Source of the DNA: Escherichia phage vB_EcoM_G53
Length of the DNA stretch: 64,000 nucleotides
Direction: 5' to 3' (one strand)
Sequence record: MK327943.1
Shown here: in pieces, positions 2,191-28,022 of the stretch
Numbering within the stretch: the first letter of the stretch is position 1
Layout of the letters: every line of letters starts with the position of its first letter
Position numbers and translations under genes: made by a program
Notes under the pieces: generated by a model
What the model saw: the letters and a program-made list of their open reading frames with translations, nothing else
The model's database searches: none
Told to the model about the DNA's origin: nothing

Positions 2191-3759
2191 ATGACTACTA
2201 TCAAAACTAAAGCTCAGCTCGTAGACAAATGGAAAGAACTGCTGGAAGGTGAAGGCCTGCCGGAAATCGCTAATAGCAAGCAGGCTATTATCGCTAAAAT
2301 CTTCGAAAACCAGGAAAAAGATTTCGAAGTATCCCCTGAATATAAAGACGAGAAAATCGCTCAGGCATTTGGTTCTTTCTTGACCGAAGCTGAAATTGGT
2401 GGTGACCATGGTTATAATGCTCAGAACATCGCAGCAGGTCAAACCTCTGGTGCAGTAACCCAAATTGGGCCGGCAGTTATGGGTATGGTTCGTCGTGCTA
2501 TTCCTAATCTGATCGCCTTTGATATTTGTGGTGTTCAGCCTATGAACAGCCCGACCGGTCAGGTATTTGCTCTCCGTGCAGTATATGGTAAAGACCCTAT
2601 CGCTGCTGGCGCTAAAGAAGCTTTCCATCCGATGTATGCCCCAGACGCGATGTTCTCTGGTCAGGGTGCTGCTAAGAAATTCCCAGCTCTGGCTGCTGAC
2701 ACTACTACTGTTGTAGGTGATATCTATACTCACTTCTTCCAAGAAACTGGTACTGTATATCTGCAAGCTTCTGCTATCGTAACACTTGATTCTGGTGCAA
2801 CTGATGCAGCTAAATTAGATGCAGAAGTTAAGAAACAAATGGAAGCTGGTGCACTGGTAGAAATCGCTGAAGGTATGGCTACTTCTATCGCTGAACTCCA
2901 GGAAGGTTTCAACGGTTCTACCGATAACCCATGGAATGAAATGGGCTTCCGTATCGACAAACAAGTTATTGAAGCTAAATCTCGTCAGCTGAAAGCAGCT
3001 TACTCCATAGAATTGGCACAAGACCTCCGTGCAGTACACGGTATGGATGCTGATGCTGAACTGAGCGGTATTCTGGCTACAGAAATTATGCTAGAAATCA
3101 ACCGTGAAGTTGTTGATTGGATTAACTACTCTGCACAGGTTGGTAAATCTGGTATGACCCTGACTCCGGGTTCTAAAGCTGGTGTATTTGACTTCCAGGA
3201 CCCGATTGATATCCGTGGTGCTCGTTGGGCCGGTGAAAGCTTTAAATCTCTGTTGTTCCAGATTGATAAAGAAGCAGTTGAAATTGCTCGTCAAACCGGT
3301 CGTGGTGAAGGTAACTTCATTATCGCTTCCCGTAACGTAGTTAACGTACTGGCTTCAGTTGATACTGGTATTTCTTACGCTGCACAGGGTCTGGCTTCTG
3401 GTTTTAATACCGACACTACTAAGTCTGTATTTGCCGGTGTACTTGGTGGTAAATACCGCGTATACATCGACCAGTATGCTAAACAGGATTACTTCACCGT
3501 TGGTTACAAAGGCGCTAACGAAATGGATGCAGGTATTTACTATGCTCCTTACGTTGCACTTACCCCACTGCGTGGTTCCGATCCTAAGAACTTCCAGCCG
3601 GTAATGGGCTTTAAAACTCGTTATGGTATCGGTGTTAACCCGTTTGCTGAAAGTTCCCTGCAGGCTCCAGGTGCTCGCATCCAGTCCGGTATGCCGTCTA
3701 TCCTGAACAGCCTTGGTAAGAATGCTTACTTCCGCCGTGTATATGTAAAAGGCATCTAA
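2191..3759 (+). CDS. 23: Major capsid protein gp23
   Basis: 522 aa, near-identical to recalled T4 gp23 (521 aa) over its whole length. Confidence 0.98.
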   Translation: MTTIKTKAQLVDKWKELLEGEGLPEIANSKQAIIAKIFENQEKDFEVSPEYKDEKIAQAFGSFLTEAEIGGDHGYNAQNIAAGQTSGAVTQIGPAVMGMVRRAIPNLIAFDICGVQPMNSPTGQVFALRAVYGKDPIAAGAKEAFHPMYAPDAMFSGQGAAKKFPALAADTTTVVGDIYTHFFQETGTVYLQASAIVTLDSGATDAAKLDAEVKKQMEAGALVEIAEGMATSIAELQEGFNGSTDNPWNEMGFRIDKQVIEAKSRQLKAAYSIELAQDLRAVHGMDADAELSGILATEIMLEINREVVDWINYSAQVGKSGMTLTPGSKAGVFDFQDPIDIRGARWAGESFKSLLFQIDKEAVEIARQTGRGEGNFIIASRNVVNVLASVDTGISYAAQGLASGFNTDTTKSVFAGVLGGKYRVYIDQYAKQDYFTVGYKGANEMDAGIYYAPYVALTPLRGSDPKNFQPVMGFKTRYGIGVNPFAESSLQAPGARIQSGMPSILNSLGKNAYFRRVYVKGI

Positions 3760-3783
3760 TCTTAATTGATTAAATCTTATTTT

Positions 3784-3801
3784 GGGAGACTTCGGTCTCC
3801 C
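3784..3801. terminator. Bidirectional intrinsic terminator hairpin GGGAGAC-UUCG-GUCUCCC
   Basis: Perfect 7-bp GC-rich stem with tetraloop, T-runs on both sides, between convergent genes. Confidence 0.65.
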
Positions 3802-3811
3802 ATTTTTGGTT

Positions 3812-4081
3812 TTATTTCTGTGCAATTTCGATGTAAGTTTTCAAAATATTTTGCCAATTAGGCATACCTTCTTGGACATATGCCGGAGAACCGTCTTTGT
3901 TTTTGAATGATGCAAGTTTATCAGTGGCCCAATAACCTTTAGCTCGAGCTTCAGAATCAACTTTCATCCATACTTTGTTGAAGGCATTACCATTAACTTT
4001 TGCACCATATTTTTCTACTAACTTAACTGCTTCAGCTTCCAGAACTTTTAAAGTATCTCGTAAGAAACGTGCTTTAGTCAT
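3812..4081 (-). CDS. Hypothetical 89-aa protein on opposite strand between genes 23 and 24 (position of segD in T4; not a GIY-YIG protein)
   Basis: Clean ORF with GAGGAG RBS and its own upstream early-type promoter; no recognisable domain. Confidence 0.6.
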   Translation of the reverse strand: MTKARFLRDTLKVLEAEAVKLVEKYGAKVNGNAFNKVWMKVDSEARAKGYWATDKLASFKNKDGSPAYVQEGMPNWQNILKTYIEIAQK

Positions 4082-27093: not shown

Positions 27094-27123
27094 TATAGTA
27101 ACACATCCTACAGGAGAGTAAAC
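27094..27123 (-). promoter_or_regulatory. Early promoter (minus)
   Basis: GTTTAC...TACTAT. Confidence 0.45.
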
Positions 27124-27159
27124 ATCTTTTTAAACTTTTTCTGCCCTAAACGCACAAAA

Positions 27160-27177
27160 GGGAGACCGAAGTCTCCC
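27160..27177 (-). terminator. Terminator hairpin after 59-aa basic ORF
   Basis: GGGAGAC-CGAA-GUCUCCC followed by UUUUGUG on minus strand. Confidence 0.55.
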
Positions 27178-27182
27178 TAAAA

Positions 27183-27362
27183 TTATGCAACAACCTTTCC
27201 AAAACGAGAAGCATCATCTCGAAGAACTGCACGTGCTCTGCGCATGATCTTCTCAACTGTTTGATTAATACGAGAGTTCGACCCACGCTTGTATCCAGCG
27301 CGTTTAGAGGTACCATCAACTTTCTTTTCAACTGCTTTCTTTGCTTTAGCTTGTTTTGCCAT
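27183..27362 (-). CDS. Hypothetical 59-aa highly basic protein (MAKQAKAKKAVEKK...)
   Basis: ATG ORF not in track; K/R-rich; ends just before terminator hairpin 27160-27177. Confidence 0.4.
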   Translation of the reverse strand: MAKQAKAKKAVEKKVDGTSKRAGYKRGSNSRINQTVEKIMRRARAVLRDDASRFGKVVA

Positions 27363-27657
27363 TATAAATTCTCTTTAAATGAAAATGCAGGACTTATTGA
27401 CATTGCCTGCGCAAGCCCTCAAGGGGAACATAGGTTTTGGATATTTAACGACAGGATAACCATAAACCCGTCATCATACCAACCACGACTTAGACAGATA
27501 ACCTTTTTCTGACGCGTGATAGTACAAAATACATTCAAGAGGTACACCGTAAAACTGCCGGGGCCTTAAAACTATAATGATTCGCAAATCATTAATCAGA
27601 CAGTTCGACGGCTCCTCGATTTTCTAGCCGCACTTAAGGTAGCGAATCACCTAAAAC
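27363..27657 (-). other. 295-bp ORF-free region between rIII and the 59-aa basic ORF (candidate noncoding RNA or regulatory region)
   Basis: No ORF >35 codons on either strand in an otherwise tightly packed region; contains 7-bp inverted repeat GATTCGC...GCGAATC and GC-rich palindromes. Confidence 0.3.
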
Positions 27658-27906
27658 TTATTTAAGGGTAATAACAAAATGACGTACTGCTTTACGAGCT
27701 GCAGAAGCCAAAGGCTTAGCATATTTCAGTTCATCTTTTGCTTCCAGTTCAGAGGCCAAAGCTGCCTGTACCGGGTTCAGATGTTTGAAATAATGCAGGA
27801 TTTCCAGTGCTTCGGCTTCAACATCAATCGACGCGCCGTAGTTTTCGTGACCGTTATTCCATGCGTTTCGTTGCAGTTCAAGAGCGTGTTGTAATTGTTT
27901 AATCAT
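27658..27906 (-). CDS. rIII: rIII lysis-inhibition accessory protein
   Basis: 82 aa as in T4; sequence agrees with recalled T4 rIII; position upstream of gene 31. Confidence 0.85.
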   Translation of the reverse strand: MIKQLQHALELQRNAWNNGHENYGASIDVEAEALEILHYFKHLNPVQAALASELEAKDELKYAKPLASAARKAVRHFVITLK

Positions 27907-28022
27907 TTTAAATTCTCAATTCGAGATAATATTTAGTAGCCACGTTCGTCTGAATTTCACCTTCTTTCGACAAGTCTCTCAGTTGTAGGCTACCGCTTAG
28001 AAGAGTGTTCTCTTCATATAGT

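Follow-up and report, generated by a model that had tools for sequence, protein, structure and literature searches.

Escherichia phage vB_EcoM_G53 is a T4-like coliphage of the genus Mosigvirus, and the window analyzed here, a 64-kb stretch of its sequence record MK327943.1, contains between the lysis-inhibition gene rIII and gene 30.9 a 295-bp gap (27363-27657) that begins, in the direction of transcription, with a unit highly similar to ToxI, the RNA antitoxin of the plasmid-borne abortive-infection system ToxIN (PMC3475682). The genes around the gap are closely packed and all lie on the minus strand, in the order cd, 31.1, gene 31, rIII, the gap, 30.9, a terminator and 30.8, and a sequence search showed that positions 27100-27950 are 100% identical to Escherichia phage vB_EcoM_WFL6982. 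The gene rIII (27658..27906, minus strand), whose product is the lysis-inhibition accessory protein, was recognized from its open reading frame (ORF), a match to PHROG 1457 (E 8e-43) and the rIII annotation of near-identical phages. Its TAA stop codon occupies 27660-27658 and is overlapped by an AAAU motif that can be read directly in the sequence (UUAAAUAAG). Since rIII and all of its neighbors are on the minus strand, the gap is the 3' region of rIII and the leader of 30.9. The initial annotation of this DNA had described an ORF-free island upstream of rIII in a tightly packed region; the lack of an ORF and the packing were both borne out, and the island is real and non-coding, but its position relative to rIII had been reversed.

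Gene 30.9 (27183-27362, minus strand; 27183..27376 with its ribosome-binding region, AAAGAGAAUUUAUA) was likewise identified from its ORF, and encodes a very basic protein of 59 aa, rich in lysine and arginine, that matched PHROG 1427 (E 2e-31), a group with no assigned function, and no Pfam family. The transcription unit containing the gap ends after 30.9 at an intrinsic terminator (27155..27180, minus strand; GGGAGAC-UUCG-GUCUCCC followed by UUUU), which was read in the sequence and is annotated in a near-identical phage. Within the gap itself a consensus scan called neither a promoter nor a terminator, and inspection by eye revealed no conserved early, MotA-dependent or late promoter, while a match to TTTTAC-N17-TATTTT is present in the window and not in T4. 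The gap is nonetheless expected to be transcribed, because only one base separates the rIII stop codon from the ToxI-like unit and rIII is reported to have early, middle and late promoters (PMC9409239).

The ToxI-like unit, which we term module A (27618..27656, minus strand; UUUU-AGGUGAUUCGCUACCUUAAGUGCGGCUAGAA-AAUC), is one complete ToxI-type (type III antitoxin) RNA unit, on the transcribed strand, and was found both with a covariance model and by blastn. The model, R1, was built from 12 plasmid ToxI units only, and it matched 27656..27622 on the minus strand with a score of 56.3 bits (E 3.3e-12), covering positions 1-36 of its 36 positions; this was the single real match in the 64 kb, the runner-up having a score of 10.9 bits. 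A broader model, R2, which represents five plasmid subtypes, gave 50.7 bits on locus L002, whose gap is identical to that of the window, and in the reverse test a hidden Markov model (HMM) made from the phage units recovered the plasmid repeat arrays in all six loci. When the gap was compared by blastn with complete E. coli genomes, only its first 44 nt matched, at 137 places on plasmids, with two to four matches per record in tandem. The same pattern was seen in PLSDB, including on pECA1039, the Pectobacterium atrosepticum plasmid in which ToxIN was originally identified. The matched arrays were on plasmids of E. coli, Pectobacterium (pECA1039), Hafnia, Klebsiella and Yersinia, and all six of the blastn matches inspected were 35-38-nt tandem repeats directly 5' of an annotated type III ToxN/AbiQ toxin gene; together with four loci reached through a ToxN protein search, this meant that the repeats directly preceded toxN in ten of ten inspected plasmid loci. 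In addition, a 25-nt core of module A is identical to the type 2 repeats of the Hafnia and pU90-1 plasmids. To judge from these sequence comparisons, module A is almost certainly a homolog of ToxI, an identity that the initial annotation had not recognized.

Module A stands as a single unit, the next 10 nt (CGAGGAGCCG) being only weakly like the start of a second one. No tandem array of at least two repeats was found in the window, and what lies 3' of module A is 30.9 and not toxN. Because it has neither the array nor the toxin gene, module A is best described as an orphan ToxI unit, or pseudo-ToxI, and not as a toxI locus. Pseudo-ToxI as a kind is already known from phage PhiTE; what is new here is the retention of the active contact bases, the variation in subtype between phages and the placement of the unit inside a cassette of conserved RNA folds. 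There was no mention of a ToxI-like element in T-even phages in the literature searched, which left subscription journals mostly uncovered, and a prior description is possible.

Comparison of the core of module A with P. atrosepticum ToxI revealed few differences: U9C with A25G, which form a compensatory pair, UU in place of UUU at positions 16-18, and one extra 3' A. These correspond to the changes of groups 2, 3 and 5 of Blower et al. 2012, all of which were without effect on antitoxin activity (PMC3475682), and on that precedent the core is predicted to be an active inhibitor of type 1 ToxN. In the same study C27G and U28A each abolished antitoxin activity, and both are present in the pseudo-ToxI of PhiTE (PMC3475682). 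Module A keeps these toxin-contact bases, C27 and U28, which, like the pseudoknot core pair 9-25, were defined by Blower et al. 2011 and 2012, and reads CUA at 27-29 (R1 alignment, numbering of Blower et al. 2012). Neither the knock-out GAC of PhiTE at these positions nor its phasing problem is found in it. All five modeled base pairs are also kept, one of them, the pseudoknot core pair 9-25, through the compensatory replacement of U9-A25 by C9-G25. The cleavage motif of ToxN is AA^AU, and in-phase motifs release a unit of 36 nt; on its 3' side module A reads GAAAAUC, as in the type 2 arrays.

ToxI units proved to be more widely distributed in phages than the window alone would indicate. ToxN homologs that are 37-42% identical to the E. 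coli protein have repeat subtypes of their own, on plasmids of Enterobacter, Klebsiella and Serratia, and the repeats at four such divergent toxN loci were all like module A and not like the other modules of the gap (B-D, described below). Matching subtypes occur at the same site in the gaps of T4-like phages, with those of L034 and L039 resembling the Enterobacter type and that of L044 the Serratia type. Single complete ToxI units were also identified in unrelated phages (L115-L118), namely Salmonella phage SE131, the T5-like Salmonella phage Kenya-K42, Escherichia phage FH3 and Vibrio phage JSF10. The SE131 unit comes after an ORF and ahead of a terminator and is flanked by GAAAU at either end, whereas the units of Kenya-K42 and JSF10 sit between tRNA genes, and that of JSF10 has a compensatory UUAGC/GCUGU change. 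There are about 250 phage records, from several families, with a ToxI-like match, and those listed or inspected had no RNA annotation at that position. The variation of subtype at one site, together with the independent acquisition of units by unrelated phages, points to repeated selection. Within Mosigvirus module A is 99-100% conserved over many isolates, but RB69, the type member of the genus, does not have it: its gap (L155 8344-8606; NC_004928.1 132343-132605) begins TAAGTAAATCGAGG, making this a clean presence/absence polymorphism of ~36 nt. Such presence and absence within one genus fits an accessory counter-defense element and, since RB69 is without module A, the published partial resistance of RB69 to toxIN is not creditable to the unit.

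The gap as a whole is conserved, with blastn matches to it in 775 phage records, and its counterpart in T4 is an unannotated 244 bp at 130541-130784. A homolog of T4 gp30.9 is 3' of rIII in 43 of the 47 compared sequences (46 loci and the window), and in these 43, which encode both genes, the gap between them is of 120-420 nt; lengths of 294, 295, 288, 244 and 162 nt were seen, with differences that are not multiples of three. Alignment of the gaps in the direction of transcription revealed a mosaic of five transcribed-strand modules, A, B, F, C and D, that have been gained, lost and reordered among T4-like phages. The order is A-B-F-C-D in the window, A'-B-C-D in T4 (A' being a diverged unit) and B-F-C-D in RB69, and many phages of Klebsiella, Citrobacter and Enterobacter have a 135-nt module E, in varying orders with C, A and D. 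Module matches found with nhmmer were in the rIII-30.9 gap, on the transcribed strand and one per genome, with no second copy in the window. In distant T4-like phages either rIII adjoins 30.9, with ~10 nt between them (L096, L097), or 30.9 is absent, and the cassette is therefore taken to be an insertion of the enterobacterial T-even phages.

The bulk stability of the whole gap is ordinary (folding z = -0.55 for the minus strand and -0.98 for the plus strand), and the structural signal is in the individual modules and their comparison between phages. Module C (27429..27479, minus strand) is an H-type pseudoknot for which covariation was assessed in 23 distinct sequences. Its first helix, P1, pairs GACGGG (27472-27467) with CCUGUC (27455-27450), and its second, P2, is formed by the loop UAUGG and the 3' tail CCUA, with a 1-nt bulge needed in the window and the T4 lineage; conservation is high in the joining segments GUU, UUAUC and CGUUAAAUAUCCAAAAC. 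In the 23 sequences 83.9% of cells were paired, versus at most 50.4% when the pairing was slid, the covariation score was 0.478 versus at most 0.13, and both sides change in eight of the 11 pairs. A scan of 185,579 species genomes for the module C pattern gave 10 matches, all without the helices and attributable to chance. Two other ideas were rejected: a leader peptide starting at the AUGAUG with which module C opens, the ORF of which varies from three to ~34 codons and is missing in some phages, and a K-turn or C/D-box at UGAUGA, for which there is no partner CUGA.

Module C was also found in IMG/VR phage contigs where no rIII-30.9 setting was apparent: between tRNA-Asp and tRNA-Pro in L121 (6797-6854), directly after tRNA-Met in L140 (832-880), after tRNA-Ile in L049 (1340-1410), and in or beside a tRNA array in L051 (3190-3245). 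From this occurrence within the tRNA arrays of other phages, module C would appear to act as a free-standing small RNA gene. L049 and L051 share the motif CCTGTAAYAAGGTCAAGYCYGTG 5' of module C, and L051 also has, at 3740-3934, a 64-aa basic ORF (…KAVRDPNGLFRPKTERDKSKYYRKEKHKK…) that may resemble the ribosome-rescue factor ArfA. A whole cassette was found in a comparable setting in phi92- and muut-type phages, which are not T4-like and hold A'-B-C-D within a tRNA cluster, between tRNA-Gly and tRNA-Gln (L045 1290-1640 and L047; Escherichia phage phi92, NC_023693.1, about 53.4-53.9 kb). There the cassette is followed by the ribosome-binding site and ATG of 30.9 fused to the last ~40 codons of rIII, and the insert is bounded by a 13-nt direct repeat, TTTATTGGAGATT, the second copy of which is the 5' acceptor stem of tRNA-Gln; it looks like the capture of a permuted fragment through microhomology. 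The presence of modules in tRNA clusters, the phi92 cassette included, speaks against a function linked to rIII or 30.9, and is compatible with, and no proof of, a decoy role like that proposed below for module A.

Modules B and F are also RNA folds supported by compensatory changes. Module B (27532..27620, minus strand) is an irregular long hairpin of ~89 nt with three stacked helices, a closing CGAGG/CCUCUUG, an inner hairpin UAAUGAUU-UGCG-AAUCAUUA and an unpaired 3' bulge region, and RNAalifold on 15 variants gave 25 pairs, five of them compensatory. Invariant G-U pairs (columns 11-82 and 17-76) identify the minus strand as the RNA strand of module B, since the opposite strand would have C-A mismatches in their place. 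With nhmmer, module B was matched only between rIII and 30.9 in T-even phages and in the cassette copy of the phi92 type. Module F (27480..27530, minus strand) is a hairpin of ~50 nt that has an outer stem AUCACG/CGUGGU, an inner stem CAGA/UCUG and a conserved loop, AAAAGGUUA, with 11 pairs, four compensatory, by RNAalifold on eight variants; it is absent from T4, and in other phages the 135-nt module E takes its slot. The 244 bp of T4 includes conserved, covarying folds (B and C) that have neither a described function nor an Rfam family. Conservation in related phages had been named in the initial annotation as the test of its proposals, and it was found, with compensatory base changes.

Module D (27377..27427, minus strand), which was assessed by a slid-pairing comparison and by comparison between phages, resembles a terminator or attenuator. 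It has a small hairpin (CCCCUUGAGGG, 27426-27416), a second hairpin, GCAGG...CCUGC (27410-27387), with a 5-bp stem and a 14-nt loop, and then the U-rich AUUUUCAUUU (27386-27377), although the second hairpin and its tail were not called by the terminator consensus scan. Its fold is weakly supported: 98.6% of cells were paired, versus at most 51% when slid, with a single compensatory pair (A-U to U-A). A hairpin with a U-rich tail is found just before the ribosome-binding site of 30.9 in all lineages compared, even where the sequence is different, and module D is most likely a leaky terminator or attenuator, and a 3' stabilizer, ahead of 30.9. The suggestion in the initial annotation of a long regulated leader may hold for this last module only, and of the three options it offered, the nearest was a small structured RNA, with the amendment that there are several independent minus-strand modules and not one RNA.

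Module E is not in the window, but was noted as a GC-rich, single-copy element of ~135 nt in T4-like phages of Klebsiella, Enterobacter, Citrobacter, Escherichia, Yersinia and Serratia (e.g., L006 931-1065, L029 1761-1895 and Klebsiella phage JD18 118857-118991). It is present in about 400 phage records, in which it is unannotated or labeled “hypothetical protein”. RNAalifold gave it 45 pairs, of which 22 are compensatory, and by eye it has a covarying closing stem, a hairpin with a GAAA loop, and loops CGAUGG/CCAUCG that covary as if kissing. It had no match in Rfam or in E. coli. Two further observations concern the neighboring genes. In T-even phages that carry both, gp30.9 comes after the RNA cassette, and a shorter homolog is directly after rIII in the distant L096 and L097. 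Adjoining cd, from ~29300 onward on the minus strand (L001 3701-3851), is a gene for DAHP synthase (phospho-2-dehydro-3-deoxyheptonate aldolase), an auxiliary metabolic gene that T4 does not have at this position; the annotation is found in mogra, NicPhage and NRG-P0074, which are near-identical phages.

Searches for known relatives of the modules other than A were negative. The covariance check against Rfam proposed in the initial annotation (riboswitches, ribozymes and sRNAs, including preQ1, pistol and twister) produced no match to the gap at E up to 10 or to 10 related loci at E up to 1, and nothing relevant over 12 related loci in all; the same scan missed ToxI too, so its blank is no proof of novelty. 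When all of the gap was searched with blastn, module A alone had matches, both among 72,556 plasmids (PLSDB, E cutoff 10) and among 5,426 E. coli genomes (E cutoff 1), and blastn revealed no bacterial counterpart of B, F, C, D or E in either plasmids or E. coli. Modules B, F, C and D did not occur as type III antitoxin arrays in PLSDB or E. coli, a comparison that had the TenpIN and CptIN loci themselves outside its scope, and the first 50 kb of Yersinia plasmid NC_009705 had neither an annotated toxin nor a module match.

What might a T4-like phage gain from a single ToxI unit? Processed ToxI units hold ToxN inactive, and the shutoff of host transcription induced by a phage leads to ToxI decay, after which ToxN cuts phage RNA; it is via this shutoff-triggered decay that T-even phages are restricted by ToxIN (PMC9391042). 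A ToxI mimic made by a phage is able to suppress ToxN (PMC3475682). On balance, the reading we favor is that the gap is a non-coding RNA cassette, co-transcribed with rIII and consisting of independently folded modules, in which module A is an anti-ToxIN decoy RNA; for module A taken by itself, anti-ToxIN mimicry is probably the function. In the proposed scenario, infection would shut off host transcription, the unstable host ToxI would decay and the ToxN ribonuclease would be set free, while the phage transcript through the gap would supply a ToxI look-alike throughout infection. ToxN would then bind the module A RNA, probably trimming it at the flanking AAAU motifs, and, once re-inhibited, would allow the infection to go on.

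Several points weigh against this proposal. On the 5' side of module A the nearest AAAU overlaps the stop codon of rIII, which places it 5 nt farther from the unit than its native counterpart, and the predicted ToxN-processed product is for that reason ~41 nt and not 36; the 5' tail of the unit is UUUU and not AUU(U/C). The window has one unit where native arrays have 3-7, and the 1.5 pseudo-ToxI repeats of wild-type PhiTE do not protect it from abortive infection unless they are expanded (PMC3475682). Plasmid toxIN strongly restricts T2, T4 and T6 even though they have a diverged unit at the same site; that of T4 (A') scored 14.2 bits (E 0.74), and no plasmid counterpart of it was found. T-even phages also have TifA, a known anti-ToxN protein, which may make an RNA decoy redundant. 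No link to any defense system was found for modules B, F, C and D, and the decoy role of module A itself is deduced from sequence.

Some of these same observations would be expected if module A were a functionless relic of recombination with a toxIN plasmid, as in PhiTE-F, that is drifting neutrally in a tolerant site: it is single-copy, its 5' cleavage site is not intact in the native phase, the T4 version looks degraded, RB69 does well without the unit, and T-even phages rely on TifA (PMC9391042). Neutral drift, however, would hardly leave all five modeled pairs (one by compensation) and both toxin-contact bases in place, with only experimentally neutral differences in the core, nor near-identity over many Mosigvirus isolates, and the different subtypes at one site and the independent acquisitions in unrelated phages speak for selection as well, all of which makes a relic improbable. 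A somewhat stronger, if still rather unlikely, alternative is that the gap in its entirety is a conventional cis-acting UTR (untranslated region), involved in 3' stabilization of rIII mRNA, RNase processing, partial termination or the tuning of 30.9 translation, and that the ToxI-like piece is just a hairpin. The gap does lie between co-oriented genes without an internal promoter-like site, it is 3' of rIII in all 43 compared sequences with 30.9, the hairpin and U-rich tract are always directly 5' of the 30.9 ribosome-binding site, and in many phages a UCUCC...GGAAGA pairing is able to sequester the Shine-Dalgarno sequence. Against this reading, the modules keep no fixed order or content with respect to 30.9, and neither gene needs the cassette, given the abutting rIII and 30.9 of L096 and L097. 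Elsewhere, modules C and A are found in tRNA arrays where 30.9 is not close by, the cassette was captured by phi92-type phages without that gene, the unpaired nucleotides of module C are better conserved than the flanking proteins, and the ToxI match is far above the level of a generic hairpin.

The other two explanations are much less probable. That the gap is a decayed gene, as the initial annotation had offered, or an unrecognized one could be argued from its minus-strand ORFs at 27419-27547 (42 aa, GTG start) and 27474-27587 (37 aa, TTG start), and some annotators have indeed called “hypothetical proteins” of 33-42 codons here, with small CDSs in two deposited records. We consider a protein-coding origin very unlikely: the only ORFs in 27363-27657 are of 26-42 codons with GTG, TTG or ATG starts, their frame, start and length vary among close relatives, indels are not multiples of three, ~50 nt spanning them are deleted in T4, RNA helices show compensatory substitutions, and most records, that of T4 included, have no annotation here. 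Less credible still is a single structured RNA defined by the 7-bp inverted repeat that was highlighted in the initial annotation, in which GATTCGC (27579) and GCGAATC (27642) enclose 56 nt. The repeat exists at the positions given there, and the palindrome CCGGGGCC is at 27558, but at least one such repeat occurs in 74% of shuffles of the region (four were observed versus a shuffle mean of 1.7), and the palindrome is not conserved, T4 reading GACCCCGAC. The two arms are in separately folding and separately inherited modules, one in the ToxI-like stem and the other in the loop and 3' strand of the module B hairpin; their pairing is lost in T4 (GATTCAC versus GCGAATC) and in L013, and it cannot form in the absence of module A (RB69, L014, L022), yet module B is kept there.

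ToxIN is a standard model for phage sensing by a toxin-antitoxin system, for which T-even phages are the usual challenge. In the literature searched, the only understood RNA-based escape from ToxIN is the expanded pseudo-ToxI of PhiTE, and the only T-even counter-measure is TifA. If our reading of module A as a decoy is true, a fixed single ToxI unit with active contact bases would constitute a second, RNA-based anti-ToxIN layer in common coliphages, and the variation in subtype, together with its absence from RB69, could help to explain differences in host range between close relatives. Judging from the ~250 records in several families, orphan antitoxin RNAs may be a common and unannotated class of phage counter-defense. 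A bolder extension, which we put forward as speculative and think unlikely to hold in full, is that the whole gap, including that of T4, is an RNA counter-defense island in which B, F, C and E would each mimic or sequester an undescribed host immune RNA or RNA-binding effector. Phage tRNA clusters would, on the same doubtful footing, host the same class of decoys, with the ToxI mimic being the only one recognizable today.

The cassette and its first module can be set against several known systems. TifA (T4 gp61.4) is an 85-aa RNA-binding protein inhibitor of ToxN found in T-even phages (PMC9391042, PMC10853763), and so has the same presumed target as module A in the same phage group, but it is a protein, encoded elsewhere in the genome, whereas module A is an RNA homologous to the native antitoxin. 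The T4 rnaC and rnaD (species 1 and 2 RNAs) are, like the modules, short structured non-coding RNAs of unknown function that are co-transcribed in arrays, and the parallel extends to the positions of A and C between tRNA genes in other phages and of the whole cassette in the tRNA cluster of phi92. The cassette of the window, however, is outside a tRNA cluster (ARAGORN found no tRNA or tmRNA in the window), and by eye, without alignment, the gap showed no similarity to rnaC/rnaD. The PeSL cassettes of T4-type genomes (Arbiol et al. 2010) are reported to be short intergenic modules that are shuffled between genomes, with many per genome, each with an early promoter and a stem-loop; they differ from the modules of the gap, which are single-copy and have no promoter-like site.

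The closest relationships are to ToxI and to PhiTE. Module A shares with ToxI of P. atrosepticum pECA1039 and of E. coli ToxIN a unit of 35-36 nt, AGGUGAUU(U/C)GCUACCUU(U)AAGUGC(A/G)GCUAGAA, with pair 9-25 preserved by compensation, C27 and U28 in place, and an A-rich 3' end with a cleavage-type AAAU motif, on the transcribed strand. It differs in being single and not in a tandem of 3-7, in being phage-borne with no toxN 3' of it, in its 5' tail and the lack of an in-phase AAAU 5', and in being embedded in the 3' region of an mRNA, where ToxI has its own promoter and terminator. A 2017 study of ToxIN escape in the T4 family regarded PhiTE as the only phage with an understood escape mechanism, and the PhiTE locus is an RNA mimic that suppresses ToxN once expanded (PMC3475682). 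The PhiTE pseudo-ToxI is, like module A, a phage-encoded, intergenic ToxI look-alike, and the two even share the U9C/A25G, UUU-to-UU and extra-A differences from P. atrosepticum ToxI (Blower et al. 2012, PMC3475682). Yet where PhiTE has 1.5 repeats with the knock-out GAC at 27-29, and escapes only after expansion or recombination, module A is a full unit with CUA, and it resides in an unrelated T4-like phage as one part of a larger RNA cassette.

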